DNA of 64,000 nucleotides, from positions 8,270,234 to 8,334,233 of the forward strand of contig OZ316894.1 of assembly GCA_973895155.1 (NCBI GenBank), given 5' to 3'. Origin of the DNA: Marsupella aquatica. Lineage: Eukaryota; Plantae; Marchantiophyta. Positions 11,831 to 56,219 of the stretch are shown here, one piece after another. The notes below the pieces were generated by a model. The model was not told the DNA's origin. It saw only the letters and a program-made list of their open reading frames with translations, and made no database searches. Numbering within the stretch: position 1 is the first letter of the stretch; the number at the start of each line of letters is the position of its first letter. Made by a program: the position numbers and the translations under genes.

Positions 11831-11984
11831 AATTGATTCTGTACCCAAGAGCTACACCCCATGTGAACATGTATCCAATATTGTAGAAACTTACACAAAA
11901 TTGCATGTGTTGTACCTTTGAAATGTTTGATCCAGATGTTTCCGATGTTGAGTTTATCTCCATCAGGTCAGATTGTGAAAGTCT

Positions 11985-22711: not shown

Positions 22712-23018
22712 AACCCCAATTTAAGGAAAACCAAACTTTGGAAATTCCAAAAATCACTAAATATTATTATTTTAATAAAAAGGGGGCGACATGACGCGTG
22801 GCTGCGCGTGAAACCCTGAAAATGACTGCAACGTCATATTTTAACCAATCCAACTTGACGGGACCAAGAGACATGCTCACACGAATAATAACAATAGAGA
22901 AATAAATCTCTGAGATCCTTTATATATGATAACCAGTATATAAGGAGATTACAAATCATTTCTAGAATGACAATACAAATTAATCTGATCTCATGCCGAC
23001 TATTATTTTAGAAGCGTC

Positions 23019-23712
23019 CTAAATTGGGCGTCTGTTAAATTGCTCTACTAGATATCTATCTCCATGCCTCTGAATCACAGGGTCTTCCCATAGAGTATGA
23101 TTATAATCATAATCTCTAAAAATAGATTTAACTGACCAATCAAGATAATCTCTTCCATTGGCAATGACAAGCGGTTCACAAGATTTTGCTAGCTTGCTAA
23201 GATACGGAATCAACAAGTTAATCAGGAAATTGTCGTCAACCGACTCAAAATATTTGGGCGGAAATAATGATCCAACAACAGGATCTAAACAAGCATGAAA
23301 TGCATTGGATTTGATAAGCATTATATTTTGCTGCAGATACGTCTTCGTATAAATTCTAACCTTCTCAAAACACTTCAAAAATATCCGCTTATTTGATGTC
23401 ACCCCATCGCATAAGTAACAATGAGACTGATCCCAAATATACTTAAATGAGGCCATTTCCGTCGCAGTAAAAATAGATGCTAAAATCTGATCTAAAAGGT
23501 TCTTCCCAAGAGAGGACCAGATCCCTGCATCGAAATTCTCAAAACAGAATCTCAAGAATTCGTGAAGATGAAGCCTTGGAAAAACGTATATATTCCCAAT
23601 CCGAATTCCAATTGAGACCGCCATCAGTCAGGAATGCGGTGCAGTGTAACAGACTAGATGCTCCACGTCAAAAACTATGAGCCCATTAATTTTCTCTGCT
23701 ACAATGAATCTC
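23019..23712 (-). pseudogene. FCP1/NIF-like HAD domain 2, last exon of cargo gene
   Basis: LIVFDVEHLV (degenerate DxD, shifted frame), PRLHLHEFLRFCFENFDAGIWSS, FKYIWDQSHC, NIMLI; acceptor ctacag at ~23713. Confidence 0.75.
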
Positions 23713-23869
23713 CTGTAGAGAAACACAAGAAGATGCATGAGCCCGTATGGATGTAGTCACGCGAATGGTCGCATCACATATTACAGAGACAACATCCTCT
23801 ACACTCTGGCCATTGATAAGTGACGTCTATTGAAGTGCTTGATAAGAACTTGATCCGCATGTCTCTGCA

Positions 23870-24841
23870 CGTACAGATGCTCCCATATATCCTCATTCAG
23901 ATCCCAATCTCGATGTAAATTTCTAATCGACCAGATGGGATAATCCAACCGGTCTTATCGGACTTATCCCGGTCTTTTTTGGCAGATAAGTATTTCATAT
24001 ATTCGTCAAACTTTTCTAAATGGTCTTTATTCCCCCGATTACAAATGATCACATTTCTCCTCCAAAGATTCGTCTTATCAATATAATCTCTCTCAAGATT
24101 GTCTTGAGAGAACGTTGGAATCCCATATCCACTAAGGAGCTCGCGGAATGTCAACTTGTCAATTGACATGTCGCATAGATATGGATATAGTTTCTTTCTA
24201 AAAAATAGGTCATCATCAAGCCCAAAATATGCATCGGGATACAGCGATGAATAGAAGTTATTAAGGCTCGTCTTATATGCAGCATCATCGATAAGAATGA
24301 CATTCTCAATGTTGTAATCTTTAATATTGGCGGCAATGTCGGAGAGACATTTGACAAATTAGGGGATGTCATTATTATTCTTCCCAATAGGTCAAGTTGA
24401 TTCTTGTCCCCATATAAATTTAATACGTTTCAAAACTTTGGGTCGAAGTATTAGCCTTACACAAGATAAAATATTCCGTTTGAACATGCACGACCAGATC
24501 GCAATGTCGTATAGATCTGCCACCTTCTCAAGAAATTCCATTAAATCAGGCCTTGGATAGATAACCTTGTGCATCTGTCTCACACCCCTTGACCGAATGG
24601 GCATCCCAGGGCTGATCTTCTCTGACCAAATAAGTACCCAATTCAGATCAAAAATTACAAGTCTCTTCTGAACCGGTGACTTCTTTGCCAATGGATTAGG
24701 CGCCATCTGTACCTGTGATTTTTGTGCCGCAGGGTTTGGAGAACGTACTAGAACGGTCTATTTGTTTCCCACCTCCGAACGATCACCGGACTTCCGAACT
24801 GGTGCCTTCGATACTCGATCAGGGGGTTTCGGGATAGGCTT
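23870..24841 (-). pseudogene. FCP1/NIF-like HAD domain 1 of cargo gene
   Basis: KRLVIFDLNWVLI, YPRPDLMEFLE...YDIAIWS, KFIWGQEST*, NVILIDDA; stop and frameshifts. Confidence 0.8.
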
Positions 24842-24926
24842 CTGTAAAACATTAAGAAATGAAAATAAGTTTATAACGCGAATGGTCGCGTGACTACAAA
24901 GAGAGACACTGAAATGAAGTGTATTA

Positions 24927-25716
24927 CTTGTACAAGACGGTCGTTCAGTGCTGGAATTCCGCTAGAAATGTCAATCATAGCAGCCCGGATCCCGATAACT
25001 AGGTTATTTGTGGACGTCGGCTTGCGAAAGTCCATGTCAAATAATGACAAGACTATCTCCCTACGGAATTTCTCAATTTGATCCGTGGCAAAATTAATTT
25101 TGTTTCCTTGACACAAGCACTTGGCGTATCTCAAGATAAACACACCACAATTATGCCCGTCACTCTAGTGAGGAATATCATTCCGATATATCCATTCCCA
25201 ACCTGAGAGATCCAAGTTGACACCAGTTCTCCAGCCAATTTCGTCGGCGTAATACTTCCCAACAATATCTAGCACCCCAGGATTTTGTCGACTATGAACT
25301 AGAGAATCTAGGTACTCGAGCCGTTTCTCCTTTGGATACACAACTACCAATGACCAATGTTCTTTCATAGCATTGTGTACTGGAAAGACCAGTTTGTCGT
25401 ATTCACTGATTTTTAGCGGAAACTCCTTTGTCCAAGCTGCTCTCTCCTCATCGAAAATGGTAGGATCCATGGAGAGAAGCTCAAAATGGTGTGTTTGGAA
25501 GAATTTGACAAGGTCTAACTTTCCAACTCTATCAAGAATCAGTTCGAGAAAACTCAAATAAGCGTTAATTATATCATCGGTGAGCAACTCGCATGGTCTC
25601 AGACACATCATATGTTTCCTATTGATCGAGTGTTGTAAGAACTTGGTCAATAGCTCTTCCATATCCTTAGAAGGATCAAGGCATTGATCTATTTGACTAG
25701 CCAAATTTTCAAAAAA
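24927..25716 (-). pseudogene. Ulp1/SENP (C48) protease domain of cargo gene
   Basis: CLRPCELLTDDIINAY, LVFPVHN...EHWSLVVV, YLDS, IPH*SDGHNCGVF (conserved Gln codon now TAG at 25165-25167). Confidence 0.9.
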
Positions 25717-25819
25717 CTGCAAAAAATAGAGATTTCAATACGCCTTCAAACAACGTAGAAAACAGAAACAATAACAAATCAATAATAACATAATGACGAC
25801 TATAATAGAAACTTTAAGC

Positions 25820-26398
25820 TTATAGTTTGCAAATGACCTTTGGATTGGGTGGATCCGGCCTTTTCGCAGTTGATTTCTTGGGTGCCTCCTTCGCAACAAA
25901 ATCCTTCAGCCCTCCTCGAGACCGTAGTGATCGCTCCATCGGACCAGTTTGCGAAGGTTGGAGCGATGAGGCGGGAAGACCTTCGAATGGTTGTGGCATT
26001 TGATTTAAATATTCCACAATCTGGGAATCCGATTCCAAAATATCCGGTGCCACCATTTCTGTGCGAGTGACCTCTGCAGTATATCGGGGTCGAGATCACA
26101 AACCCGGTCGCGTCAAGTCAGCTGTTAGTCTCTTAACGACTTGAGCCAAGTCTTGTGCCAAAGACGTTCCCAGGTCTTGCACTCGATTCTTGGAAAAGCG
26201 GACATTATTGATGATTGTCTCCACTCTGGATGCAGTGGCAGTCTTCTCCGTGGTAATCAAAAGACCCTTCCAATATTGCAAAGCCAAGACAGCCTGGACT
26301 CAAAGTTGCTCCGGTGAATATTTATTCCAATCATCCAACGAGACTGTACTTAAGGGTGGATCGTTAAACTCAAACTCCGGGCGAAGAAAATAGTCTAA
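25820..26398 (-). pseudogene. Cargo gene linker exon, 3' side of the nested insertion
   Basis: DYFLRPEF...EQL*VQAVLALQYW joins in frame to ...VAVKKKIL at 47832 when 26399-47831 is removed. Confidence 0.75.
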
Positions 26399-27009
26399 AA
26401 CACAATTTCCGACCGAATGAGAACTATTTCCGCAAACAAGAAGTGTGTTTTCATTTTCCGCCAAATCTCGCAAAATTGGTGGTTTTTTTAATCAAAAACA
26501 GGTTTTTGGGGAAATAATGTAATCCGTATCGGAGTTCAGATTGAATCAAGAAATTCATGAATGGTCCAAACCACTGAAACTAATGCTCACAAACATTTAA
26601 TTTATCAAGGAAAAATTAGATCCTAAAAACTTTCGCCTGAACCTGATATTCACACTCTCCAAAGATATATGAAAGATCTTATCTAGAAATCCATATCCAC
26701 TTTTCAAGCAAAGTCCGATAAAGTCTATATCGGATTCCGGATTTCAACCATGAAAGTTCCGACCCAATCTCAGTTTTCTCAGTTTTTGGTTATTTACCGT
26801 AACTATTTTACATCACAATCGATAAGAAATTACTACACGGTTTGTCAAACTTACCTTGCAGTTACCTCTGCGATTGACCATAGTTACCTCTGCAAGTGAC
26901 CATAGTCAACATGTCGTTGTCTCAACCGCAATGTGTCATCCGATAAAACTATCGCGAAAACTCCGGACGGCCAAAATACTTGCCGACAATACTAACATCC
27001 TTCGGTTCA

Positions 27010-27700
27010 TCCGTTAAATTTCAAAATTGCAACTCTCCATATGAAGAAAACACTTTTGCAATACCAACATCAGATAAATTTATCGCTTAAATTTCAAAAT
27101 TTCAACTATCCATATGAAGAAAACACTTTTGCAATACCAACATCAGATAAATTTATCACTTAAATTTCAAAATTGCAACTATCCATATGAAGAAAACACT
27201 TTTGCAATACCAACATCAGATAAATTTATCGCTTAAATTTCAAAATTACAACTATCCATATGAAGAAACTCGGGGGTTTCACTTCCACAAAAATGGCATA
27301 TCACGTGCGACGAAGGATAGGGTCATTTTATTGGTTCTAAGGGAAGACTTAAGAATTTTTGTAGAAGAACAATAGGGTCTTTTAAATTCAATTTTGAGAC
27401 TTATAAGAACATTAGGGTCCTTTTAATCCAATTTTTAGAATATTCCAAGAATATTCCAACTTTATAGGGGTTAATAAATAAATTTTTTTTCTTACATTTT
27501 AGGGGGTCCGAGGCCTAAAAACGTCGCAGGCGATGGGGAGGTCCCCATATAGTGAGACCCCTGAGTGAAGAAAACACTTTTTGCAATACCAATATCAAAT
27601 AAATTTATCACTTAAATTCCAAAATTGCAAACATCCATGTGAATAAAATCTATTTTGCAATACAAAGATAGATATATTTATCTCTCAAATTTCAAATCTA
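27010..27700. repeat. 73-bp tandem array containing GATAAATTTATC, interrupted by MITE copy 2
   Basis: tatgaagaaa at ~27040, 27113, 27186, 27259; the unit resumes after 27566. Confidence 0.9.
27269..27565 (-). mobile_element. MITE copy 2 (297 bp), 8-bp TSD
   Basis: CTCGGGGGTTTCACT...AGTGAGACCCCTGAG; perfect TSD TGAAGAAA at 27261-27268 and 27566-27573. Confidence 0.95.
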
Positions 27701-28789
27701 CATAATTTTGCCAAGATGCACATGTAAGAATCAAATTGGATATTCAAAAAATATACCCTTCTCTGTTATTTTATCGTTTAGCGAGACGGTCAATCAAAAG
27801 TGGCCACGTGGGCCAACCCCTCAACAGACACGTACTATTAAAGGGCCACCGCCGATGAGTTTTTGGCTATGAGTTTTTGGCGTCATTATCCAGAGTAGAG
27901 TTTTTTTGGAGTTGTGTTCTTGAAGCAATATTTTGTCTGTTGAACCATTCGTTTTCCTTGATTGAGGGGAGGTATGCAAAGCCCCATAGTGTCTCGGATA
28001 GCCATGTCTCAATCAGACACAGATTCACCTTCAAGTTTAGTTAAAATCCTCTCCTAATGTTGTCGCTTGCTCTTTGCCAAGTCGCATCCCTAAAGCTCTA
28101 CCTCTCGCATAGTAGATTGTGCTTGAAATCTTTGACTTTGATTGGGATTCTGATGCAAGTTCTGGTCCTAAGCCCAATTCTTACTATGTGTCGCCTAATA
28201 AACCTGAGAAGCGTCATCTCTTGAGCGTTCCTTCGCCAAGAATTGAGAAATTTTCAATCCCACGTTTAGGTCTGAGATGTCGCTTCAGACCATCCATCCC
28301 AAGTTATGGAGAGGGTATTTGGCAACCGATACGCGTATCGCACTTGGCATTCAAGTCGCCACATTCAACTCACATTCAACGATGGATTTTTCAGTCTCCG
28401 AGTGAGGAACAGGAAGCAGAAAAGAGTAAATTTCTAAACCCGTGTGTTACTCCCGATAATTTTATTGGGTTGAAGGATTCCAATGCTTCTTCTTTGGTAA
28501 TTGTGTGTGAATATATTGTTTGAATAGTTTGAATACTTATCCCAATAAATTTATCGCTGTCATGGTTTAACATTATGGTAATCAAATCAAGTGTTTGAAT
28601 ACTGAACCCGATAAATTTATTGTTATCAATCCAGCAAAATTCTAAACTTTTTTATTATTGAGGAAAATTCTCAACATTGCTAAACGAGCATCGAAAGGCA
28701 CAAGAATTGGAGAGGGAGAAGTTAGCAAAGCACCGGAGCAAATATAACAAAAAATCTGAGAAATATTTGGAACACGAATTCGGACCAAA

Positions 28790-29555
28790 GATAACATGGA
28801 TAACATAAGACCACTATTAGACTGGGCTCATTGAGGGCTTCAAAATGAGTCCAAACATGACTATCTATAAACACCCACAAACAACATATCAACCATTCTT
28901 AGTTTTGTAACTTTCTATAATGATAAAACAATATCAATCTTTGGAATACAAACAACAATAAATTTATCGCAACTTTCATTCCTCCTTATATTTTGGGTAC
29001 TCCTGGTTGGTCTTTCAAGGTTAGATCCATTAGCACAAGGTTTTGAGGAACAAATCTTGCCCCTATTATTATCTTGTATTGAAAGATAATATGGACAACA
29101 TAACACCACTATTAGATTGGGCTCATTGAGGGCTTCAAAATGAGTCCAAACATGACTATCTATAAACACCCACAAACAACATGTCAACCATTATTATTTT
29201 TGTAATTTTCTATAATGATAAAACAATATCAATCTTTGGAATACAAACAATGATAAATTTATCACAACTTTCATTCTTCCTTATATTTTGGGTACTCCTG
29301 GTTGATCTCTCGAGGTTAGATCCATTAGCACAAGGTTTTGAGTAACAAATATTGTCCCTATTATTATCTTGTATTGAAAGATAATATGGACGACATAACA
29401 CCACTATTAGACTGGGCTCATTGAGGGCTTCAAAATGAGTCCAAACATGACTATCTATGTACACTCACAAACAACATACCAACAATTCTTAGTTTTTTAA
29501 CTTTCTATATGATAAAACAATATCAATCTTTGGAATACAAACAACGATAAATTTA
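28790..29555. repeat. ~295-bp tandem repeat, about 2.6 copies
   Basis: ccactattaga(c/t)tgggctcattgagggcttc at 28811, 29107 and 29401. Confidence 0.92.
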
Positions 29556-32500
29556 TCAAAAATTTATCAAAATTTATCAAACAAAGGAATCCAAAATGTG
29601 ATAAATTTATCGCATGTTTGCTGGAATCTTGAATCCAACAGAGGAATGCAAACTACGATAAAATTATCGCATGTTTGTTGAAATCATGAATCTAACCAAG
29701 GAATGCAGACTACGATAGTTTTATCGCATGTTTGGCCTCATTCACAATTGGAGGACTCAAAAGGAGTGTCACACCTGAATTTGTTACAAAATGATCGTTC
29801 TCAAGGAAAGTTCTTTGAGCATTGGGTTGATGATTTAGTTATTTGATATGTTTAACATAGAAACCACATCATAGCCTTATAATATTAAGTGACCCATATG
29901 TTTTTTGAAAGCTCTAAGGTTTCCTGTTTCCTCTCGCAAGATATTTGTCAGGACTGGTCACACAAAAAGTCACAATACTTGATCTCCCAAAAGGACTGCA
30001 AGTTTTAATTTTTTTTCTAGTAACAAGTTTTGAGGGTATGCATAGGGAGACACTACATGATGTCCTATCAAAATGGAACCAAAAAAGTCATTAGTTTGAA
30101 TTAGCAGGAAAGAAATGAACAGGAATTTAGGGCTCAGTTAGGGCCATTTCCGCCAGGACAACTTCAAAATTTTGTTTTTGAGATTTCTTTGCATTTCCAA
30201 GTACCCTATAACATGATTAAGAATGTGATGAATCTATATGAAAATTTTGACTTTGTATGTAATCGCAAATATCAAATGGAAAGGATTCAGGAGTTCTCCC
30301 TAAAAGTCCTTCCCATTCCTTTCTCATACTCAAAGTCAGGACTATCGAAAGATCTGATCCGTTCATTTAAAATGTTTGTTTAATCGGGATGGTGTGGATG
30401 CAAGGTTCTTTGAATCCTTTCTAGTTCTAACAGTAACTCTACTATCCATGTCGTTTTCCACTACGGGGCCGGTGCTTCCCGCTTAGAGTTCCCTGCCAGC
30501 ATTATCGGGATTCAAAGGGAGTCAATCTTTATTCTCGCTCTGTGTTATCCTCTGTGCGCTAGCATTAGCTGGTTTTAGAAGGAGTTGATTCACATTTCAA
30601 TGGAGAAGGCCCTTGAGATAATGGACTGATTTCAATGTTGCCCGTTCAACGCTACAAGTGAGGGGACAATGGCAGAACAAAATGGCCTGGTTGGAAGTTG
30701 AACAAAACTGAGAGAGGGACTATCTTGACGTAGAAGCGAAGCGTCAATGGCAAAACTAAGGTGTACGTGCTGGTCAATGGCGGAGAACTATGTACAGAGA
30801 GCTCTCATAGGACATTGAGCTGTTTTGGGAGAGGATCGAATTGAGGCAACGGGAATGGTAGGGCAGGCCACAATGCAGAGCCGCTACCCTCTCAAGGTAG
30901 GCTATACCTAAATGGGCTCACCATTCGTATTTATTTACTTCAACTGAAATTGCTCGAAAGTCATGGGAATTTTTGCTTGTATTATGTTTGCTTCAAGAAT
31001 CTATACAAAAGTGGGCATTCTCTAGAGAGCATTCATGGATCAGAACTGTTGTAATGGTGTCCCTATGAGTTGCATGAAAATAAGTCACAAGCTTTGTCTT
31101 TTGGACTTGCATCCGAAGTTGTCCTTGCTTACAATCCAGACAGTCCAAGTTAACTGAAGAAATCTGCATTCGGGCAACGTCTAGGATAAGGAAAACTGCT
31201 ACTATTCAAGGTTTAGGGTTATGGTAGATATTTTTTAAATGGATCGGAGGAAATTGACATACCATAGAGGTTCCAGGTAAGATAATGTTTGGAGCGACTT
31301 GAAGCGAAGCGCCTTTCGGCAGAGCGGAGCGCCTTTCTTTAAGCGGAGCGCCTTTCAGCGCCTTTAGTTGCAGCATGCGCATGGGGTGAAAGATTGCGTA
31401 TCAAAATAATACTAACCCAATGTTGAGAGTGCTATGTGCAATCAATAACTGGTGCCTCAACTTGCCAAACTGTAGGTTCTCGACTACTAAAGGTGCCCAG
31501 TGCCATCAACACACAACGATGTTGGACCATTTCCCTGCCCAATGAGCCGGTTGATCGCAGCTGTGCAACTGCTTACAGCCCACGACCTTAAATGTTGATC
31601 AGACGCCGCCTTCAGTTGAGGTATTAAATTTTCTATTACCTACTTACCCATCCCTCTGCTGCGGCGCTCTAAACTGAAATGAAAGAAATTGTCTACTATA
31701 TATCTTGCTGAGATAGTAGACTGTAGCCCCAAACTTGCCATTGCCGGTCCAAAAGCAATGGTTCCCACTAGCTGAATGCGGAGCTTTTCGGACCTATAGT
31801 TTGATACTATTTACGGTTCTTCCTTTGCATATAAAAGTGAGAAAATCAGAGAACAATCCAACAACCAAGTCCAAGGGGGAGTCTAGTGTCGATGCCAATG
31901 ATCCTCTCGATCTGGCCATGCAACGGCATACATCTTCACAACCAAGAGGATCACACTGCGCCAGAAGAAGCTTCCGGCCAATGATCTCGTGAAACGACAG
32001 GTTTCTCCCATGTCTGTCTGTTTGACACTTTGACTCTTGAAGCTTGGACTCCAAGCGGCCATGCTCACCACAAACCTAGTGAGCCAAGTGGCCACAATCT
32101 CCTAATAGTCGTTGCATTTCCATTTCCATTTCCATTTCATTTATAAGAATCATCTCCGAGTCGTTCATGTAGCAATCACTGGCACACTCTGGCACAATAG
32201 TCGTTGCAAAGAATGTGAACTGCTTGACAATGTGCTAATCAATCAATCCATCGTTTGGAGATTGGTTTGTTGAATCTGAGAGGTTCAGCGTTTTCCAGAA
32301 CTGTTTGAGAGGTGGGCTTTCTGTACGATCTGTTTGTTGTGTTGTTGCCTCTTTTGTCTCTGTTTTTTTATGGTGTTCGTGGGTTTTTGCCTTTTTCTGA
32401 ATCATTTCTCTTGGCTTCATGAACTTTGAAATTCCAATGCATTTGCCTATTAGGCTGACGTGCAAATGCCCATTTGCTAATTGGAGGTTTCATTTATCAG

Positions 32501-33975
32501 TAGCCTACTTTATGGTGTGCAAAAAGGGCTAAGATAACTTTGATTTTCACATGTTCACCCCGGCCTTAGATATGTAGTTTTCCCAATCAAAGGACTGTCA
32601 GACGATCCAGTAGATCTTGTTTTGGTGAGACAACTTTTTCAATATGCCCGCTCATCTTCTGTATCATTGCCAAATACTCAACGTAACGGATATTCGATTC
32701 TCTCTGTGGAGATGGATTTCTATTGTTTCCTGCTCATCTATCCCTTTTGCTGTTATGGAGTTCATTGTAGTACTTGATTGCTCCTTATCTCTCCTTTGAT
32801 GGTAGTATGCTTAGAACTAGATTTGTTTATCAACTCACGCAGGCACAATTCATCACCGACCGTTTAGGACTTTTCAAGCTCACACTCGACTTGGATTTTG
32901 GGCCCAACTAGGATAATTTCCGGTTGAATTCACTTGTTGATGATTAATTCGATGCAGTTTGTGTCCGAATTTGCTTTGATGTAATTTTTCAACATCAATG
33001 ATTGTTCTTCCCTGGTCAACTCCCGGCATTGTGCCTTTTATGCTTTGTCCAACACTTATGGGGCCCGACTTTTAGAGATGGGTCCTTGTGCCATTGATCA
33101 TCTTGTATGTGGAGTAAGAATGAAGTTATTTTGAGCCTTGTCCAGTGTCTACCACGATGCTCTGCTTTGATTCACAGGGATAAGAGATCAGTCAAACGGA
33201 GGCAGATGGTCTAAGCCCATCACTATCTTGCTACCCTAGCACGACTACTGCATCCCTCGGTAGTTTGGAATGCCTTCAAGGTCAAGGACTAGAATGAGGA
33301 TGAAATTGGTGGCAAGGGAGAGGAAGCAAGTCGACTGCAAAGCTCAAGCCGTAGAGACACCGTCACAGCAAGAGCTTGAGACCGTGCCATTAGGACAGAC
33401 TGATGTGCAAGTGCCTAAGCTTGGAGTGGAGGCTTGGTCTTGGGGAGATGCTTTTTTTGTGGCATGAAGGTGGCTGGGATGGTGAGTGCCTCGTTGCTCT
33501 ACTTCTTTGCCCTGATCACTAGCTTCTGGACAGTTGGACTTCAAAAAATCAGTAAATATTGAGAGGAACATTTTATCCGATTACATAGTAGTTTCTCCTG
33601 GCTATATTATGTTTCCATCCTTCCCCTAACATGCCTCATTCTATTTGAAATGCAAATGAATAATAAATTTTAAGTATGTTGTTTAATCTAGAATTTGGAT
33701 AGGTTCGATCCCATGAAACTCAGCCAGGTTCCTTGCTCCCATCTATTTTTTCTTTCATTATGTTGATTCAGTCTATTGTTTTTGGAATAATTTCTTCTTT
33801 TAACATGGTATTGCTTGCATAGCAGGAGAGGCAATGACGGGTAGCTCGGGCACAAAATCCATTTGAAGGAGTTAGGAGGAAACATCCTCACTTGGCTACA
33901 TGCAGTTTATCTTCAAGATCATTCTGGGTAGTTGACTCAGAGACCTGAGACTGAAGCTTTGATTGTATTGCATCA

Positions 33976-40400: not shown

Positions 40401-40965
40401 AAGTACTTTGCGTCAAGTGCTTCACAGCAAGTGCTTATTTTTTTAACAAGTGGTGTGTATGCAGCTGATGTTGGTCGTGAAGCCAAATAGGATTGTATGC
40501 TTGACCGTTGTTGGCTGATGTCCAGGTGAGTGACCCTGTCATCAGATTGCAATGTAGTGCAGCAGAGACACTTAAAGTTCAATTTACGCCCAGTCTTTGT
40601 AACGAATGAACTGAGATGGCCTTACCTTAGGTCTTGTTCCTCAATCAAGCCAGAAACACAACAAAAAAGGACCTGGCAGTATTACCAAAAGCCATGGGTT
40701 CGGGCACCATTCCAAGCAACAAGGTAAAGTTCTGCGCACAATCAACTAATAGGACTTGATCCACAAATTTTATTGCAAATATAGAAATTGCTTCCCTTGC
40801 CATCAAATGTCTGGAAAGCAATTGTGCAAGCGCGCAGGTAATACAATGCTTTAAAAAACACTCAGCTATATACCTACTTAGTTGAAAGGAATCTATCACT
40901 CCTGAAATCTCTAAATAATCACGGAAAGCCACACCAAGCTATTCTCGCACTGTAAAGATATTCTA

Positions 40966-43529
40966 TCATGAAAAGGAGTTGAAATTTTTTGGTGCCCTGG
41001 ATTTCTTCTTTGGCCTACGTGTTTTAGTGACTTTCGGGACTTCCATGTCAGCTGCTTCACCCCGAGTGATCCTCTTTTCACAAGTAGGGTTTGGGGACAA
41101 TGGATTTCTCTTCCTCTTTCCCCCAATAGTTCCAGATTTCTTCTCGGTCACAAAACTCTCATGCTGTATATCTTCATTCTCCTTCAGCAAAGAACCCTTG
41201 GATTCTTGCTCTATCTTCTCAAGCTTCACAACAATGCCATTCTTGCTAATGTTCTTGTCTATTGTAACCTCTCGAGCTCTAAGGAGCGAATTATCCTCAC
41301 CTTCTGTATCCGAGTCATCCGAGGATAAGAATGAAATGTGCTCATGCTTCATGTCCCTCCCCAAAATAGGCCGAGGAGGGTAGTGCACTAATCCAGATTG
41401 AAACAATGGTTCAGAATCTGAATCACCTGACTTATCCTCCAATACAGTTTCGTTTTGAGCTCCACTAATCTCCATCTGCAGACTTGGTTTGGTATTCTGC
41501 TTCTTAACTCTTCTTGATTCTGTTTGCTCAATCTGTATCACTATCAAGGTATCAAACGCGATATTCAGATTAAGTGCTTGAGAGGTAGGAGGCCTCACAA
41601 AAGTTGGTACTTCACTTCTGAATTCTGCAGACTGTCTAATCTTCAATGGACTTGTAACTTCCAACAGTGGGCTGATGTCTGGAATTGAAGATCCTTGTTT
41701 GCTCTCCAAAGAAGAGATAATTGGCTCATGCTGTCCAGCGTGGGTCATGAAGGAATATGATAAATCAGGTTGCTCATTTACACAACTATCCCACCCATGA
41801 GCCTCAATATCATCAGCAAGCATATTGAAGTGGTCATTTTGTAGCGCAATGATCTGCTGGTCTTGAGCTAGGACCTCCTCTTGCATAGTAGGACCTGAAA
41901 GCATTTGAAATAGAGTTAGACTCGAGATGATCTTTCAATAAGCTGTACATAACATTTCAAACCTTTAGTATCTGAGAACAAATGATCAGATTTGCATTGA
42001 TTTAGAATTAATTTCAAATAAGACATGACCAAAACTGTCAAGAAAGAGAATTAAAAATACATACATGCTCCAGTGAGCTTGTCCATCCTCTTTCGTTCGC
42101 CTTCCTTTGCAGCATTTCCATTTTGAAGCAAAGGTCGCACTCCAACAGACACAAGCCAGTCTTTGTGGAAATCCTTTCCACAAGAAGGAACTTTACAACG
42201 CAAAGCTTGTTTGGCATGTGAAAACATACAAATCATGTGATATGTATGTCCACAACTGGCCACCAAAATGTCATTCAACTTAAAACCATGTCCACAAACA
42301 GGACAGTCATTGACTTCAATGAGCGGATTACAACCAGAGACATAAGATACTTCACTGTTGTAGTCAAGGCAGCTGACTACAGGTTGAGGATAAAAGCAAC
42401 TTCCACCTCCCTCTTTCATCTGTGTAAACTGCTGATCAACAAGGAGAATCTGGGCCATTATATCTTGTACTTTTTGTTTCTTGGCAGCAAGTGTAGCGAG
42501 AGAAACAATGACCTTACTGCTAGCTGTCTCACACTCCTTACGGCTGATGTTGAGCATGCTTAATGCAATCTCGTCACTCTTTGTGGCCCATTCTAGCTTT
42601 TGTTGGACTTCACGGATCTCAGAAGGTGCTGAAACAATGCTAGAGGAATCTATGTTTAGCAGCGTTTGAAAACAGTCATTCTCACAAATTTCTCCATCTC
42701 TAGCAAGTCCTGGTAACTCTCCTTGAAGTCCATGTTTTGTTACCAAATGATTCAGTTCTCTCACTAGTTCTAGTCTATGAGATTCAGAATCAAGATAGAC
42801 TTTCTCTCGACCTTCTAACTGCATTTTGGACACCTGCGAAGTTGCCACATCAGTTGTGTACTGTTCTTGAGACTCTAGAACATTTTTCCTTGCCACAAGC
42901 AAAAACGTCTTCAAGGTTGTTGATAAATCACCCACTCGAGAAATTTCTTCTTCTTTCCAATCTGGAATCTCGGGTAGGCTGATCCGAGTTGGACCTCCAG
43001 AGCAGCTGATCTTCAACGGGATAACTGGCATGCTAGAATCGCCACTCTCCAATTTCACACGTGAAGGGCGCCTTGTGCCGCGAGTACCACATTTTCCAAT
43101 TGCAAGCTGCTGTCCACTTTTAGACTCTTCATGGCCTACTGTACCTTGCTCTTTTCGTTCACGATTTAATGCCTTGGTTGTCTTCAGGTCAGTTGCATAC
43201 CTATGACTATGCACAGCATATTTTGCCCAATCCAAAGCTTGGCCTTTCAGCCAAGCCACCACACCTCGGGCAAAGCATTGGTTTATTGTAGAGTTCATCA
43301 CTTTACTTTTTCCAGTGACTCTTCGATACAACTCCTCAATACTTGAAACCACCTTTGGTTGTGGTTTCCGATCATACCTGTATCCACTCTTGGAATACAT
43401 TGGTCCGAACACTACTTCAATCTCTGCCACAGAAATATCCTCATTTGTCAAAGTTGTGATGTCCATCCCGCCTGTAGCCAAACCTCTATTCTTAACAAAC
43501 CAATGGACATCTCGAATCTCCTCCCCCAT
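40966..43529 (-). CDS. Coiled-coil + RING-H2 protein (putative E3 ligase) with a second disordered exon; Sola2 cargo
   Basis: 492-aa open frame with CPVC...SCGHTYHMIC...CKVPSC (C3H2C3); donor gtatgt at ~42064; 312-aa downstream ORF 40966-41904 with basic NLS-like tail; convergent with the transposase. Confidence 0.75.
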
Positions 43530-43799
43530 GTTGCCAAATTCTTAATCTGCACATTCAATTGCAAGAACAAATCAGCTCCAGCTCATTTGCTAAACCTATA
43601 GGCCACATATATAAATTGAAGTCCATCATGCACAGAGACAGCTAGATACTAAATGACCAAAGAGTGCATCTATCATAGGGCTGATAATCTATATAATGCG
43701 CTTCACGTACACCAGTTTTCTCAGGTAAACAACAACTTAATTAAATAGCAGGGCTTGCTGACAAGCAATCATGTCAAGTAAGCGACATACATGTCTAGA

Positions 43800-44330
43800 C
43801 TTCAGGGACTTAACAGGAAAACAGGAAAACTGGAAACAAGAGTGGACATCGATAACAGGAATCAACAGGAAAATAAGTATACACAACTTCAAGAAAATGA
43901 ACAGGAACAAGGACTCAAGGAGATTAATAGGATAAAGGAAATTTGCATGTACACTTCAAGGAAATTAACAGGAACAAGGACTCGAGAAAGCAAGATGCCT
44001 GGACTCAAGGAAATTAACAGGATAACAGGATTATGTATAGTTCAAGGAAATTAACAGGGAAAAAGGACTCAAGAAAGCTGACAGGATAAAAGGATTACGT
44101 ACACTTCAACAAAAGTACTAGGGAAAAAGGACTGGTATGTATACATCAAGGACATAGGACTAGACATGAAGGAAAATAACAAGGAAGGAGGAAATAGGAC
44201 ACGACACTGTCAAGAAAGCTGGATGACAAGGAACGGGCCAGGAAAATAGAATGGCACTGCTTGTGGATACAGGAAAACAGTCATAACAAAATGTCAAGGA
44301 TAGAGGTCCCGGTAGAATTAAGGAACATGC
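43800..44330. repeat. Degenerate A/G-rich repeat array upstream of the RING ORF
   Basis: Repeated caaggaaattaacaggaacaagga-like units. Confidence 0.7.
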
Positions 44331-45674
44331 ATGACTAGAACTCCAAGGAACAAAGAGCATACTTAGCACGCAAGGAAAAAATAGTAACTTCAATGGACAT
44401 AATCAATCTTCAGAAAATGAACCAGATTTAGCTTCACAAGACACAAGATTTCAAGCTTGACCAAGCAGCAAGAGAGTCGATTCATCTACCTAGCAATCCT
44501 TAGCTTAATTAAGCACACATGACTGGACATAAAAAATGGAACAAGCTAAAATAATGACACGGCGTACATGATTGGGATTCCAGATCAAAGTCGTAAGTTG
44601 AAATTCTGGTGATAAACCTTTTGCTCGATCGGATGCAAGGACAAGTTTGACTGCATGAGGGTTGATCTCAATCTATGAGCTGTATTACGATCATGGCAGA
44701 ATAGAACACACACAACAACACAAATCAGTATGCTGAGAATTGGGGTTCCTGATCTTTGAAACTTACTAATGACATTTAATTAATTAACCTGAATCCTACC
44801 CGGCTTCCTACTTAGATAAACCAGAATCCACGATATTCAAGCTAGGCGCACCAGATTGAGCTTCAAGGGACTACACTTAGGTTAAAGACAGAGATTTCAA
44901 CCTCAGATAGGGTACACCCAAGGATACGTACACCTATCCAACAATCTTCAACTAGTTAAATTAAACGTACATGAATGGACATTGAATAGTTGAAGCGAGA
45001 AGGGACGTACCGAGCTCAAATATAATGACACATACATGTGTCAGTTTTAAGATGAAATTATGTTTATAAACCTTGTATAGAACTGGAATGCAATGACAAC
45101 TTCAACTGCGCGCTGCATGAGCTAATTTCTACAACTTAAACCCTGGAATCATATTAGGGTTGTCTTTGGCAACTAGCGCACCATCTCTAGGGATCTACTC
45201 TTACCAAGAGCTATTGAATCAAGCATAGCTTTGGGCAAATTGAAGCTAGTTACGCACCTTCTCTTTCCACTTGGTTTGCATATCAAGGATGTAAAATATG
45301 CTCACAGGACATTGCGGACATCGAAAGATTTTAAAACTTTTAGTCACCCGTTCATTTTTTATACATCCCGCCCGTGGACCACTAGCCTTGGCGTCGTCAA
45401 TGTCCTGAGTAAAAGAAATACAGTCCACATAATGTTATCATCATGGCTTCTTGATTCTATAACTAAGCAGAAAAACCTGAAATGTCTCGACAATTTAGCT
45501 AGGATTGGGAGGCGCACCTGTTGTTTCCGTATCTTTGATTGAGGACATGTGCAAGACCATACTCGCAGATTGATGGAATGCTTTCAAAGTAAGGTTGAGA
45601 ACTTCAATGATAGGAAGCAGGAATGTCAGAAAAACAAGGGCGCAAAGACCAAGCGGGACGGAAAATTTCAAAAG

Positions 45675-46100
45675 TAGTGGAGTGGAGCCAAGATTGAAAT
45701 GCTCATAAAATCTGCCCAAGTTTCAGCGCAAAATGCAACGCTACGATGAGGTAAAGCCAAGATTGAATCAGCTGGCTCCGAAGTTCCGCCCAGATTTCAG
45801 TGCAAAAAACAACGATGTAATGAGGTTGAGCCAAGACTGATTCGACTAGCTCATAATTTTGACCAAAATTTCAGGGCAGGCGGCAAAGCCAGCATGAGGT
45901 GGAGCCAAGAATTAATCAACTGGCTCATAAAATCAGCCAAAATTTCAGCGCAAATGGCAAAGCAAAGATGAGGTGGAGCTAAAAATAAATCAACCAGCTC
46001 ATCAAATCAGCCCAAATTTCAGCGCAAATAGCAAAGCAGAGATGAGGTGGAGCCAAGATTGAATGAGTTGGCTCATTAGTTCACCCCAAATTTAAGCGCA
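45675..46100. repeat. ~73-bp subterminal tandem repeat, about 6 copies
   Basis: gaggtggagccaagattgaatc...ggctcat...aaatttcagcgcaaa at ~45682, 45751, 45824, 45899, 45973, 46047. Confidence 0.88.
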
Positions 46101-46849
46101 AGAAGATATATTCGTGATTAAAGCTTTTGGATCCTTGCAGAGTTTCGGACACTTGAAAGTTGCTGTAGCATTTGACTTAACGTCCATCGTAGATTGATAT
46201 CTGTATCAAATCCTTACCATCCATTCAAAATAAGACTCATCTTTTATTTCTGACTTGCTTTGATTGCGGCTGGTTTGGTCATTAGTTATACTTTTAAATT
46301 CAAAATTATCAAAGGATTCTAAATACAAAGTCCTTTCATGTAATCCTTGTTTTTCATACTATTAGATACAAGAGAATTCATATCAAAGTCCTTTACTTAG
46401 TTGTTCCTTAAGGGTACACCCAATTGTGAATGGGGCCGTTTGCTTGGAATCCTAAATCCAACAGAGGAATGCGGATTGTGGTCGACTCTTGATTACATGA
46501 TTGGGACCAAGTTACTCACAGTTGGGACTTTGGGCAACTTTTGAAAGTTACAAATGTAAAACCCAATGCACGTATCACTGCCTACATTCATGCGATGATG
46601 CAATGTCCAGAACTGATGTTTTTTTATTTGACATCCATTTTATTGGAGTTTGGATTGCCTTAGAAAAAAATAGAGTCGGGCTAAACGAGAAGTGTGTCAC
46701 ATTTCTTGGTTGGTCCAAAATCGTGGTGCCATTTTATCGCACTTTGCATTCACCTAGAAGACATGACCCCATCAAACACCTAAGCCTTGAATCCATCACA
46801 GGAATGCGCGCTCTGATAATTTTAGCGGATGTACTCTAAACCATCTTCA

Positions 46850-47170
46850 ATCCATTAAAGGAATGAAGACTTCGATAAAATTATTGGAGTCTCAAATAAT
46901 CTTCAATCAATCACAGGAATGGAGACTCCGATAAATTTATCGGAGTCTCAAATAATCTTCAATCCATTAGATGAATGAAGACTCCGATAAATTTATCGGA
47001 GTCTCAACTAATCCTCAATCCGTCAAAGGAATGAAGACTCCGATAAATTTATCAGAGTCTCAAACAATCCTTAATCCGTCAAAAGAATGAAGACTCCGAT
47101 AAATTTATCGGAGTCTCAAATAATTTTTAATCCGTCAAAGGAATGAAGACTCCGATAAATATATCGGACC
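46850..47170. repeat. 56-bp tandem array with palindrome ACTCCGATAAATTTATCGGAGT
   Basis: Six units, core at ~46874, 46930, 46986, 47042, 47098, 47154. Confidence 0.92.
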
Positions 47171-47831
47171 TTGAATATAGTCTATGGAATGAATGCTCAC
47201 TCTTATAATTCTATTTGATGTTCTTCAAACATATTCAATTCTTCAAAGGAATGCAACTGAGGAATGCAGAATGCGATAAATTTATCGCAATCCGCTTGGG
47301 TCAAGACATTGACACCAAGTCAACCTTACATAGATGTTACTCGAACTGGAATGGTAGTTCCGATAAATTTATCGGGTTCTCTGGAGAAAGAGTCAAGTCT
47401 CTTGTGAGGAATGTAAGACTTGATAGGAGTCCAGTATTCGCTCTGAGTGAGGTGTTGTTTGCTCCGGCAAAAATAAACCTTTCATGGGCAGCCCACTCCT
47501 CTTTATATAGGGGATGCTCTAACCATGGTTACTTTTTGCAATAACTCGGGTTAACCATGGTTACATTTGCACTAACCCAGGTTAGTGCGTGGTCGACCCT
47601 CGATTACGTGGTTCGGACCAATTTACTCGCAGTTCGGACTTTTTCACAGACCAAATGTAAAACCCGATGCACGTATCGCTCCCTGCATTCCCGCGGCGAT
47701 GCAATGTAGGCAACTTGTGTTTATTCAATTTTTTGGCAGTTTTATTAGAGATTGCATTGCCTTAGAAAGAAAAATGGAATCGGGCTAAACGAGAAGTGTG
47801 TCACACTTCTCGGTCGGTCCAAAATCGTGTT

Positions 47832-48650
47832 CTAATATTTTCTTTTTAACTGCAACTGAGGGTGAAGAAGGCTTCTTCAAATTCAGCTTTATTTTTGGTA
47901 GATGTTGTGCCTCAGGAATAAGCGAAAGATCCTTGGCCCTCTCGGCCTCCTTCCTCACTGCCTCCACCTTCTCCGCCTCCACCCTCTCTTGTCTTGTGGC
48001 TTCTTCTCTCTCCAGTCTTGCGGAATCGACCTTTTCCGCCTCCAACTTCTCTGCCTCCACCCTCTCCGGTCTTGCAGTCTGTTTGCTCTCGTCCGCCATC
48101 CTCTCGGCCAGCAGTCTCTCAGCCGCCACACTCTCCGCCTTGGCCCTATTTGCCTTTGTCATTAAAAGGACTCTCGCAGACTGGGCTTTCTCAGCCTGGG
48201 CTTTCTCAGCCTTCGCTTTCTCAGCCTCCGCTTTCTCAGCCTCGGCTTTTTCCTTCTTCATCGCGGCAGTTGCTTTTCTAGCTGCCGCCTTTTTTAGCTC
48301 CTCTTGCTGGGCCGCCTCTTGTAGGGCCGCCTCCTGCCGGGCCGCCTCCTCTCAGTCCGCCTCATGTCGAGGCTCCTGTGTGGCCTCTTCATTAGAGTCC
48401 TCAGCGTCCTCAGAACCCTCCATCTCCTCGTTCTCTTCATCAGCGTCCTCAGCGTCCTTCATCTCCTCTCCGTCACTCTCTTCCTCGCTTTTGTTGGAAT
48501 CTCCGACGTTGTTTTGCGTATCGGTCATCCACTCTGGATCTTGGTCATTGACATCCCCATCTGCGTCACCTTCCGCGTCACCTTCCCCCTCACCATCCGC
48601 ATCACCATTGCTCCCTGCATCCTCAACATTGAAGCCGTAGTCGACTTGAT
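47832..48650 (-). pseudogene. Acidic and A/E/K-rich coiled-coil exon of cargo gene
   Basis: GDADGEGEGDAEGDAD acidic tract, then AARQE and AEKAE repeats; one stop at ~48353; acceptor cttcag at ~48651. Confidence 0.75.
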
Positions 48651-48779
48651 CTGAAGAAAATCATATCATTAAATAAGAATGACTCACGCGCATATTCGCG
48701 TGAAAAGAAATGTTAAGAATGTCCACGCGCATGTTCGCGTGACGCAAGAAAAAGTAAGAGGGTTCAAAAGTAACCTACC

Positions 48780-50492
48780 TTGGATTGGCCCACAAGGGTA
48801 CTCCGTTGGTCGAATGTACAATCAATTGGAATCTTCAGAGAGGGCATACTCTTGCAATAATTGATTACAAATATTATCAGGGATATGTTGTTCGTGGAGG
48901 ACATCCAAAACATCAGCCCTGAGAGCAGTTACGGATGGACGGTGCTTCATTAATTTATCTATACATTTTTCTATACTAGCCCGTACTGGGTCAATCAATG
49001 ACAGTGTTGTATCAATTATCGCCATGGTGTGTTGCAAGAAACAAGACAACTCCCTATGCGTTGCCACGAGGCAGTAATATTTTACATTGGATTAACATCC
49101 TATAAAAAAAGCCAAAATTAGTTCACAATATTAATTGAGAAAATAAAAATCGAAATAATCATAAAATCGAAACCCCAAAATATAAATCTCAAAACTTACC
49201 ATTAAGCACTGGATCAAGTTTGTTCCCTCGCCGAAGCATATAGCCCATTCCCCACATTGGACGAATTGACTAACAATACTTTCAAAGAATGGAAGTATCA
49301 TTTTTGGGGAAGGTGTCATGAACTCGCCGCTCTCTTCAAAATTGGCTATCTTCTCAATCCAATATTTGGAGACCAATTGGAACTCGAGGGCTTGTGGATC
49401 GCCCATTGTGCTAAAGGCCAAGCTGTGAAAAGCGTAGGTTACAATAAGCTTCTTCTCCTTTGGCCGCTTCTAAATATAATGGCTATCGACAGCAACGTAG
49501 TGTGTACTTCCCTAATTACCGTTTGATTAAATAAGACTCAACGGGAGAGGCTACAATAATAACCACATGGTGTGGTTTTGCCCCTATCTCGCTAGTAGCA
49601 CAAAATAACCCCTCATAGAATGAGCAATTTGGCGGACGCAAATCTCCCATTGATGAGGAATCAAAATAAATCAAGCTCGCAAGGTTCTTGTCTCCACGTA
49701 TGATATAGTCTGCAAACCTAGCATTTTATATCCTGCAGGGATCGCAATTTCAGCCTCTCACCGACCGGTCGCAATAGTTGGTTTCCTTGACTATCAACTG
49801 ATTTCTGTATTCCTTCCACCAACCTGTGGAATATCGGGTCGATCTCTTTCAACAAATTATCATTACTAATATTTACTTTTAAGCACTTCTTCAGATAACC
49901 ACTCAGCGCATCTCTCAACTGCTTCAGCACCATCTTGTCGAGCTTAAAGTGATCAATCATTCCTTTGACCCGCAATTTCTGCACTGAATCTGTCAGACTT
50001 TTCAGCTCCATCCGGGTGGATGTATCCCCGTTGAGTTTACTCAATAATAAAATCTCAAACTCAACTTTCGTCTTCTTAGAATTGCTCCAAACTCATGCTG
50101 GTCGTTGACAACACCGGAGCCTCAGAGGACGTCCTCGCCTTCCCACATTTCACTTTGATGCTTCGGTTTTTGAGTATAGACAGTCTTCCGCTCAACATAT
50201 ATTCCGCTGCCTTTCAAAGAACCGAGTCCGAGCACCCTTGACAAGAACGGAACGTCTTCTTCAGAAGATGATAAGCACAGGGATTATCCGCAATTTTGAC
50301 GGTGTCCCTCTGTAAAATTCCATTGTAAATTACAAGCTCTCCTGTCCTTGATAGTTCGTAGACCTCCATCCATTTCTTGAATGTTTCGTCCTCTATTGTA
50401 AAGAGAAACGGAGCCAATTCTCCAAATTTCATCATTTCGTTCTTCCCCATTTGAGCCCATGGGCAAACAAAATTCGTAGCTCTCATAAATAC
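48780..50492 (-). pseudogene. Central cargo exons including degenerate N4/N6 DNA methyltransferase-like domain
   Basis: KNLASLIYFDSSSMG and PKMILPFFESIVSQFVQCGEWAICFGEGTNLIQCLM follow beta-class amino-MTase order (motif IV first, then KPxxLxxxLIxxxSxxGDxVLDxFxGSG); several frameshifts. Confidence 0.55.
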
Positions 50493-50624
50493 CTGAAACA
50501 ATGGAAACATGACAATTCTAAGATTGATGTGACCGTTCGCGTGAGAAAAATTCTAAGATTGAAGCGCCAGTTTGCGTGACAAAATTTTTAAAGATAATGT
50601 GATCAAAGAGGGTTATTTATATAC

Positions 50625-51882
50625 CTTCCAATTTGGATGACGATAATGTGATCCAGGCCGCCCAAATGAGTTCCAGACATTACGACACTGTCGTACAATG
50701 GTGAGAAACTATCCTTCTTCCATTGATGTTTGATGACAGTGGTTCAGAGCCTTTGATAGTCCCATCAAATGAACATTATTGTCGTTGTTGAGCGTTGCCC
50801 AAAACATTACAGCTTCTACAGTACCGCATGCGTCTCGTACAACTTGGTTGACTTTGTCGTCCTTTTTCAGCAATTTGTACGCCATTATTGTGTGTTGGTC
50901 TTCGAGTATCCAAAAATGACTGGTCATAATGTCCTCCTCCGTTGGCGCCGAATCGTAGGGCGCCCCATTGTAGTCGGGATCTCTGTCGGACTCCAATTGA
51001 ACCCACTTCATAGGGACTAAAAAGCAGCATCGCTTTTCAAACTTTATAGTTGAATGAGAGAGGAGTGAATTCTTTAGCCTATCTGTGTAATCCTGATTCC
51101 ACTCTCGGCACTTGATGTGGTCCGGTGCAAGATGACAACGGGATGTCTCAACAAAAAATGACTTGCTGTTAAATATATTCACAGCACTATATTCTTTGAG
51201 GAAAGAATCGAACAGAGCCCCGACATTTGCTGAGGTAATTACTTTCGGAAGATTCTTCGCCGAGTATACTTCAACCTTGGTCACTGGGGGGGCCTTTCCT
51301 AAGCAAAATCCCTGGTTGAAAGGAACTCTCTGGAACTCAAGTACGTCAATAATGTATTGACAAATCAAATCTCCCATTGATCCCTCTGGATTGGAAGGGT
51401 ATCCCACACTAGTAACCTTTTCCAAGGCGTGCCTTGCACCTAGAAGATCATCGATTCTGGGCTGATTGAAGGTTACATATTGCGTTCGATCCAAACAAAT
51501 GCTTATTTTGTCCTCCTGCTGGTCGTCGCTGACTAGCAAAACCAATCCCTCTGTACACTCTTTAACTTTCATGCTCTTCTCAAACAAACACCCAAGAATT
51601 TGTGATCTCTCCAAAACTGTAGCTTTATCATTTTTTGCCACCACAAGACGGACAGCCCCATTGCGAATGACTATTCCAAGATCGGATATCTTAGTCGAAT
51701 CAAAGAGATGGATACTCTTTGTCTCCGTTGTTCTCTCTTTGATTGACTTTCCTCGATATGCAAGTATGGATGTCTTCGCGGGAGTCATTCTTGTCTTGGC
51801 TTTCATTCTTGTCTTGGCTTTCTTTTGAGAAGCAGGTTTAGACGAGTCTCTTTTCCGCTTTGAAGTTCCGATAGGATCTATT
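50625..51882 (-). pseudogene. ParB/Srx-like domain exon of cargo gene
   Basis: HLAPDHIKCREWNQDYTDRLKNSL...CFLVP...FWILEDQHTIMAYKLL resembles ParB-N (R...L..SI...IIDGxHRxxA); premature TAG at 50709-50711. Confidence 0.55.
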
Positions 51883-51960
51883 CTGAAACAAACAAATATT
51901 GAAAGTTAAACATTTATTATAAGATACTAACACGCGCATGGTCGCGTTGTGCCGAATTAC

Positions 51961-52450
51961 ATTTTAGGAACGTTTTTCCTGACCCAATCCTTTCGCTCAT
52001 CTTCATCTAACCAAAACCAAAGGTTCCTAAATGTGTCAAGTTCAGATCCTTCAAATCCACGCAGAATGTCCAGCGGCGGGAGTGTTATGATGGATTCTCT
52101 AAATCTGAATGCTATATTTCGTGAAGTCAAATTCCTTCGAAGCGATTCATATCCTGGTCTATCAGTGAAGTCGTAAGCTACCAAGGTGACCGTCGCCCAA
52201 GTACTACTATAAGTAACTATGTGGCACCACTTCTTACTGACTGTTCGAATGGCGATCAAGTCCATGACCCAATTTTTAATCGCATTATCCGACAAATTCC
52301 CAAGACAGTGGAAAAACTCTTTGACTAATGGCCAAATATATTTCTTGACAATATCGTTTGGAAGACCGGGTATCAGGTCTTCAGCTTGACTCCATTTCAT
52401 GTTTCGGTTCATAACCTTTGCACGTGCAATGCGCTCCATCATCCCCTGGG
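51961..52450 (-). CDS. F-box-like exon, probably first exon of the cargo gene
   Basis: LIPGLPNDIVKKYIWPLV...LIAIRTVSKKW; a GTAATT...TTTCAG 78-nt intron (51960-51883) would splice in frame to the ParB-like exon. Confidence 0.6.
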
Positions 52451-55975: not shown

Positions 55976-56219
55976 AGGAATCTTGTGGATGATTTTTCCT
56001 TGATTGCAAAAATGGTTACATCGATCCCGAAGGACTTTGGATGTGGAATCCATATCCACTAGCATTATCCAGGAATTTAACTGACCTGGTCTTTCAAACA
56101 CTATTTTCCACGGGATGAAATTAAGCTACACAGTATCTATAACAAGTTCTAACTTGAACTACTCTTGAATCTGTAGTTCTAATCTTTGACTACTCAAAAT
56201 ATTGTAGACTTCGATCGAG

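Follow-up and report, generated by a model that had tools for sequence, protein, structure and literature searches.

The window analyzed here, a 64,000-nt stretch of Marsupella aquatica DNA, is repeat-rich plant DNA in which a large, multi-copy transposon with terminal inverted repeats (TIRs) occupies 22712..63713 (unstranded, as are the other elements, arrays and motif sites below). A long accessory gene with ParB-like, methylase-like, Ulp1 and NIF domains, hereafter the cargo gene, lies on the minus strand of this outer element, opposite the strand of its transposase. This copy is a pseudogene. The reading that we favor, with about as much confidence as doubt, is that the gene is a decayed accessory gene carried by a large TIR transposon of plants and that its product would bind the element's own palindrome, ACGCG-N6-CGCGT, and prevent silencing. 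By analogy, the cargo protein would most likely work like a VANC, a transposon-encoded accessory protein.

Palindromic motif of the outer element

In an unbiased scan, ACGCG-N6-CGCGT was the top gapped palindrome of the outer element. When at most one mismatch was allowed, 17 matches were found (0.14 expected; 0 of 100 shuffles). When up to two mismatches were allowed, 23 sites were located between 22784 and 63452; all 23 are non-coding though 64% of the element is coding, and ten of them share one array, a 256-nt tandem array at 54716..55995 with two sites per unit. The remaining sites are near the element ends (22784, 22794 and 63437), in five of the seven introns of the cargo gene (23759, 24876, 48686, 48725, 50527, 50562 and 51932), in the gap before an upstream F-box exon (53804) and ahead of the transposase (57691 and 57981). 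None was present in the first 22.7 kb of the window or in a second, inner TIR element that interrupts the cargo gene (26399..47831). The degenerate site at 50527 is converted to an exact match by the majority letters of related copies of the outer element. The predicted anti-silencing role gains support from this element-specific, non-coding motif.

The main rival, which we regard as rather unlikely, holds that the motif is a transposase binding site and that the cargo is a transposition helper or scaffold (deSUMOylation of the transposase, targeting) that plays no part in silencing. Sites do lie close to both ends (22784, 22794 and 63437). Furthermore, the inner element carries its own palindrome, CCGATAAATTTATCGG, at 21 sites, all within ~3.4 kb of one terminus and 1 kb of the opposite one; a Pfam scan of that element showed neither ParB nor Ulp1 cargo, and such subterminal arrays thus need no ParB-type protein. 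However, 20 of the 23 sites of the outer element are far from its ends (in cargo introns, in the central array and ahead of the transposase), unlike the end-clustered 21 of the inner element.

Exon-intron structure of the cargo gene

All parts of the gene model are on the minus strand. An F-box exon (F-box 2, 51961..53142; Pfam F-box, E 0.0024, under the cut-off) is followed by an exon that encodes a basic patch, a conserved domain of no known family and a ParB/sulfiredoxin-fold domain (50625..51882, the last domain at ~50724-51173). The next exon (49200..50492) encodes a helical region and then, from ~49700, a degenerate region resembling beta-class N4/N6 methylases; the end of that region and a helical tail are in 48779..49099. 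A further exon is split by the inner element, with its 5' part (47836..48650) encoding an acidic tract, read from the translation, and an E/K/A-rich coil predicted from composition alone, and its 3' part (25838..26398) a linker. The Ulp1/SENP protease exon (24928..25716) precedes the exons of NIF/HAD domain 1 (23805..24841) and, last, NIF/HAD domain 2 (22980..23712). The predicted full product has ~2,500 aa. All seven gaps (78-132 nt) have GT..AG borders, pyrimidine tracts and compatible phases, in keeping with the short minus-strand introns of a preliminary description of this DNA; the 78-nt intron 1 that it proposed after the F-box exon, with AT|A phase, matches the gap at 51883-51960. In some contigs from sequencing runs X3 and X4, a further insertion is present in intron 5 at 25754-25759.

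The same description joined KKKIL to DYFLRPEF in frame by removing 26399-47831. The insert is real: contigs of other copies (X3 and X4) pass from 26398 directly into the sequence from 47836 on, which represents an empty site, and an X4 contig also has a loose end at 47831. Deletion of 26399-47831 alone leaves four extra bases, however, and one copy of the CTAA target-site duplication (47832-47835) must also be removed to obtain KKKIL|DYFLR in frame.

Joined without indel repair, the exons contain 77 stops over 2,146 codons. The frame was repaired with four majority insertions from related copies, at 49092, 49499, 49726 and 50077; they were among the 12 visible of 24 tabulated indels, and the others of these 12 that fall in the coding span are in-frame, intronic or minor and were not applied. 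Three of the frameshifts are in exon 49200..50492 and one is in 48779..49099. The four insertions lowered the number of stops to 12, and listed majority letters (40 of 235 and 40 of 101 differences in the comparisons with related-copy contigs) revert six more. Each of the six remaining stops is one C>T step away from CAG or CGA, and homologue P0001 reads through one of them. A frameshift suspected near 50735 was rejected, as P0001 reads through the single stop there. In addition to its frameshifts, this copy has a private 4-nt insertion at 23685 and has lost at least 130 nt at 23949-23970, in the NIF1 exon.

Neither of the gene limits first proposed, 52450 and 23019, was retained. Position 52450 is within a 665-nt miniature inverted-repeat transposable element (MITE; 52444..53108) with an 8-bp duplication, which contigs of all four runs skip (joint 52435>53109). 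With the MITE skipped, the F-box 2 frame is open and continues beyond it to 53142, and a second F-box exon (F-box 1) lies upstream at 53197..53773 (minus strand, two stops; Pfam F-box-like, E 0.0025, under the cut-off). The stop at 23019 is a mutation private to this copy; the majority letter differs at 23020. Upstream of F-box 1, broken minus-strand frames were noted at 53835-54450 and 56223-56612, with a motif-bearing gap between the first of them and the F-box 1 exon; the frame at 53835-54450 had no Pfam match.

A profile search yielded 27 homologues of the ParB exon. Gene models of the liverwort Calypogeia fissa are among the homologues of the cargo gene, and homologues at 24-58% identity retain its motifs and intron 2. 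P0037 and P0027 splice intron 2 as modelled, P0021 passes the 50077 frameshift site in the repaired frame, and P0021 and P0037 align to the methylase-like exon. Word-index searches for longer homologues, which covered lengths of 2,000-2,090 residues only and are weak evidence, found none, and a near-length protein search returned one protein. No relatives of the ParB exon were found in metagenome contigs, viral contigs, phage records or solved sequences. Within the window itself, a diverged, decayed paralogue lies outside the element (10099..15400, minus strand) and comprises methylase-like, acidic, coil and Ulp1 parts and one NIF domain. Neither element ends nor a ParB exon nor a palindrome turned up in its surroundings. 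The paralogue is ~27-35% identical to the cargo gene (27% over 289 aa, with a score of 253 compared to a maximum of 52 in 300 shuffles), keeps the domain order as well as the intron 3 and intron 4 donors, and is collinear across the other two frameshifts of exon 49200..50492.

A single long spliced gene that begins with the ParB exon and ends with the last NIF domain is likely: every gap has compatible phases, the frame is restored by related copies, intron 2 is spliced alike in liverwort models, and the 27%-identical paralogue keeps the order of the parts. As no in-frame ATG precedes the first motif of NIF2, this domain needs an upstream exon. Inclusion of F-box 2 in this gene is favored only slightly over its exclusion; it is less sure because the alignments of the 27 ParB-exon homologues never reach the F-box part, and because the basic patch that directly follows intron 1 is where two Calypogeia gene models start. 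Thus, the single gene of ~7.5-8 kb that had been described probably stands from ParB to NIF2, but in this copy it is broken, and its fusion to an F-box is doubtful. The first full codon after intron 1 (51879-51881) is ATA, which is one G>A step from ATG, and homologues start there.

Alternatively, the region could hold two to four head-to-tail genes (F-box genes; ParB-methylase-coil-Ulp1; NIF) that do not make one protein. This arrangement would accommodate the stops that are met at or soon past the donors when introns 1, 6 and 7 are left unspliced, the start of homologues at the basic patch, the out-of-frame Ulp1-NIF junction of the paralogue and the stop at 53197 in which F-box 1 terminates. 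It is nonetheless unlikely, as the gaps of 78-92 nt, with their GT, pyrimidine tract, AG and matching phase, leave little space for a terminator and a promoter, and NIF2 lacks its own start codon.

Domains of the predicted product

In the Pfam scan, the queries 49201-49500 and 25818-26399 had been taken in the wrong frame, and their outcome is disregarded. The deSUMOylase assignment of the preliminary description was borne out: Peptidase_C48 (Ulp1) passes the Pfam cut-off (E 1e-19), the nearest match is SENP2 (E 1.3e-8), and the His, Asp and Cys triad is present. The codon for the oxyanion Gln is a stop in this copy and is kept in the paralogue. Both NIF domains also pass the cut-off (E 2e-11 each), with UBLCP1 as the nearest solved chain (E 0.006). 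The catalytic motif of phosphatases that act on the RNA polymerase II (Pol II) C-terminal domain (CTD) is DxDx(T/V), which is altered in both domains, to DLNWV and DVEHL; the paralogue's NIF domain has an intact DxD (DMDGF). The two FCP1/NIF domains first described are therefore retained as NIF domains, but their description as Pol II CTD phosphatase-like is unsupported. No BRCT or ubiquitin-like Pfam match was found in the gene, in which at least 130 nt of the NIF1 exon are missing in this copy. As for the proposed SCF adaptor, F-box matches do exist in Pfam, but both (16.6-18.2 bits) fall below the cut-off of 20.5 bits, and the F-box fusion is the weakest link of the gene.

The ParB region had as its Atlas neighbors clusters of DUF3723 and ParB_N (best 0.96, with DUF3723 on 31-47% of members). 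Its fold was modelled from an alignment of 30 rows, comprising the window piece, 21 rows that were profile-search homologues or P0001, and eight cluster members. The model from this alignment had a predicted local distance difference test (pLDDT) score of 81; a two-sequence model of the region (pLDDT 31) was unusable. The top Foldseek ranks were ParB, PadC, Noc and sulfiredoxin, at a best E of 9.4e-3 (PDB) and with none at 1e-3, and the viral library gave likewise. In VIA, eight of the eight chains with Z >=5 were ParB/Srx relatives (best Z 8.0, root-mean-square deviation (rmsd) 4.2, 102 aligned). A ParB/sulfiredoxin-type fold for ~50724-51173 is thus supported by the predicted model, as had been proposed. 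The family motif [GD]GQ[HY][TS] is present in 17 of 17 homologous rows covering it; EDQH in this copy reflects decay. For the ~200 residues before the ParB domain (51300-51800), which many homologues conserve, no family match was obtained.

The methylase-like region was compared to 25 YhdJ-like sequences (75 loci, 57 of them full-length, thinned at 70%). The alignment is collinear though weak, and it places CFGEG at motif I. At the DPPY position the cargo gene has DSSS and the 27%-identical paralogue has DLTT, an assignment that rests on the weak alignment, and no majority letter among the listed differences (40 of 235 visible) restores DPPY. Judged from these alignments, the region may have a methylase fold, one that would be degenerate and probably dead, as the catalytic motif is gone. 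Of the methylase fold first described, a collinear, borderline profile match is left, while a family match and the catalytic motif are missing. Alternatively, the loss seen here might be decay, and the product of intact copies an active N4/N6 methylase by which the motif is marked, in line with the proposal made for algal ParB-methylase proteins. The collinear alignment with CFGEG at motif I and the published algal precedent (available text of PMC12477816) would suit such an enzyme. It is nevertheless improbable, since DSSS here, DLTT in the paralogue and the failure of the listed majority letters to restore DPPY make the loss look old. Least credible of all is a Pack-type set of captured host fragments without function. 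The listed differences that set this copy apart from the majority do look neutral (16 synonymous, 39 non-synonymous and 7 stops), but they reflect this copy's decay; the motifs and intron 2 are retained in homologues at 24-58% identity, and the paralogue retains the order of the parts and the intron 3 and intron 4 donors.

Proposed mechanism

In the favored anti-silencing reading, a single transcript would run from the ParB exon to NIF2, probably headed by F-box 2. The ParB, helical and methylase-like block would read two CGCG half-sites and is proposed to do so as a dimer because the motif is palindromic. Cytosines would be bound or covered by the methylase-like part and, because its catalytic motif is lost, left unmethylated by it. 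Once tethered, Ulp1 would strip SUMO off chromatin proteins on the element; the NIF domains, as phosphatases of weak or no activity, may bind phosphoproteins, and delivery of bound silencing factors to SCF could fall to the F-box. A more far-reaching version, which we offer as speculation and consider distinctly unlikely, is a eukaryotic parS/ParB-like system in a transposon: the ParB-fold protein would load at 16-bp intron palindromes, spread across the element, cover CpGs with a dead methylase fold and bring a deSUMOylase, phosphoprotein-binding HAD domains and an SCF adaptor; each family would have a motif of its own.

Several observations weigh against the anti-silencing reading. The candidate motif could be a transposase site. 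The GxxR motif is the nucleotide-binding motif of ParB CTPases, and all 17 homologous rows that cover it lack its arginine. For the methylase, no match was found in Pfam, PHROGs, NCBIfam or Atlas (recognition of its 90-aa C-terminal piece in Atlas, which gave no methylase neighbor, was below threshold). The hhalign match to the methylase set is borderline (score 18.8, E 0.047; shuffles were higher in 0 of 60 local and 1 of 60 global alignments). In the first hhalign run, with a mis-phased tail, the score was 18.6 versus a shuffled maximum of 19.8, and the hmmsearch score was equalled by 8 and 10 of 200 shuffles. No homologue aligns before model residue 175, at which P0037 and P0016 start, and the paralogue has a stop after Ulp1, from which no in-frame splice to NIF was found. 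Finally, of the 46 C>T/G>A changes listed, 36 fall in CG or CHG contexts, in which 32% of cytosines are found; by this pattern, the copy decayed under methylation and was thus itself methylated.

The elements and their surroundings

The outer element (41 kb; ~19 kb once the inner element and the MITE are subtracted) sits inside a Copia gag-pol, with Copia domains matched in the left flank. Both of its ends start AACCCCAATTTAAGG, it is flanked by a 4-bp target-site duplication, ACAT, and its empty site is present in X3 and X4 contigs. Its broken transposase is encoded by exons at 58094..63140 on the plus strand (limits approximate), and its translation matches DUF7869 (E 7.9e-31), which we take to be tied to Sola transposases, and contains three acidic motifs (DKMD, QLDNC and GHTHEDVD). 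A transposase scan found a single short, unrelated-looking locus, and a TIR pattern search found a single match, which was viral. Inverted arrays of a 24-nt unit lie at 59860-61400 within an apparent transposase intron and are possibly another insert; plant telomere-like TAAACCC/GGGTTTA repeats are in a transposase intron at 61765-61815.

The inner element (21.4 kb) has 5'-AACAC termini and the CTAA duplication. It encodes a transposase on the plus strand (34024-37478; motifs DFAKNY, FSDG and GHGKG..DG) that had no match in Pfam or NCBIfam, and a RING-finger cargo gene on the minus strand (42051-43541). The two transposases differ in type, yet both elements have 5'-AAC termini and a 4-bp duplication. 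By tblastx, a short match was observed between 54269-54358 and 41667-41756 of the inner element. Elsewhere, receptor-kinase-like exon fragments and a broken reverse-transcriptase-like stretch, the latter judged by eye, were noted at 1625-5841 and 17905-19399. A small, 300-nt element occurs three times (15515-15803, 27264-27572 and 57340-57648; 86-89% alike), once near each of three larger units.

Comparison with known systems

Sola elements are described as having a 4-bp target duplication, TIRs and a DDD transposase (available text of PMC10741241). The TIRs and ACAT duplication of the outer element resemble those of such DDD transposons, and its three acidic motifs and 4-bp duplication fit that published description. 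The closest precedent for the cargo is Sola1-1_Ec32 of Ectocarpus (21.5 kb), in which a gene for a 1,104-aa ParB and N4/N6-methylase protein lies opposite the transposase and its product has been proposed to bind the element that carries it; similar ParB-methylase proteins are cited for green and red algae, and no target site is named for the algal cargo in the available text (PMC12477816). Both are giant TIR elements of ~20 kb with an accessory gene opposite the transposase and ParB-like and methylase-like domains. As compared by description, the Marsupella gene differs in its length (~2,500 aa), the loss of the catalytic motif and the addition of Ulp1, two NIF domains and probably an F-box, and its element differs in residing in a land plant and in having an identified candidate target motif. 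The architecture had been called unlike any described protein; the full union was indeed not found, but the ParB and methylase pairing has this precedent.

Among transposons, sequence-specific anti-silencing has been demonstrated for the VANDAL Mutator-like elements (MULEs) of flowering plants, in which VANC21 binds a motif in introns, in intergenic and terminal non-coding DNA and in tandem repeats of its own element (available text of PMC5735166); the Ulp1-bearing VANCs (Kaonashi, KIU) behave likewise (available text of PMC13317346). Like VANC21/VANC6 and KIU, the present protein would be a transposon-encoded accessory protein with a short motif that is specific to the family and occurs in introns, in intergenic DNA and in tandem repeats, and it shares Ulp1 with the latter. 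In contrast, its host element is not a MULE (4-bp duplication, DUF7869), and the motif takes the form of a gapped palindrome instead of a direct 9-mer. No Pfam match to a VANC-type domain was found on the pieces scanned, a comparison that included no VANC sequence.

The bacterial ParB/Noc/KorB proteins, sulfiredoxin, SerK and SbnI share the ParB/Srx fold, here that of a predicted model, which lies near a 16-bp palindrome, as the bacterial ParB-type proteins go with palindromes of the parS type. By VIA, the model matches PadC (Z 7.7, rmsd 3.0, 99 aligned) and KorB (Z 7.5, rmsd 2.6, 94 aligned). It differs from the bacterial group in having GQHT/S for GxxR, an identity of 6-14% and no ParA. DUF3723, to which the best Atlas neighbors of the ParB region belong, is a conserved cargo of the giant Starship elements and is of unknown function (available text of PMC9156397 and PMC10175614); this likeness is a similarity of features without an alignment, and Starships use tyrosine recombinases. 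The NIF domains resemble UBLCP1 and small CTD phosphatase-like HAD proteins and differ in their altered DxDx(T/V). A BRCT domain is a feature of the FCP1/CPL CTD phosphatases (available text of PMC8774115).

Nothing with this domain set was found in the available parts of PMC4738411, PMC6431247 and PMC8774115, and no literature report was found of the union of ParB, methylase-like, Ulp1 and NIF domains or of the motif, although the cited algal sources, the KIU full text and supplements may hold more. ParB-methylase cargo and Ulp1-bearing VANCs are already published; the combination of the two in a land plant, together with a candidate target motif, appears to be new insofar as no report was found. 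The candidate site makes the self-targeting proposed for ParB-methylase proteins directly testable by a binding assay. If the favored reading is true, an unrelated superfamily acquired motif-guided self-protection anew, out of a prokaryote-type fold, and a working hypothesis would be available for the ParB-like cargo of other giant elements, possibly including Starship DUF3723. Judged by its sequence, the cargo gene resembles both the algal ParB-methylase cargo and the VANCs, and it appears to share some of the defining features of each and the full set of neither.

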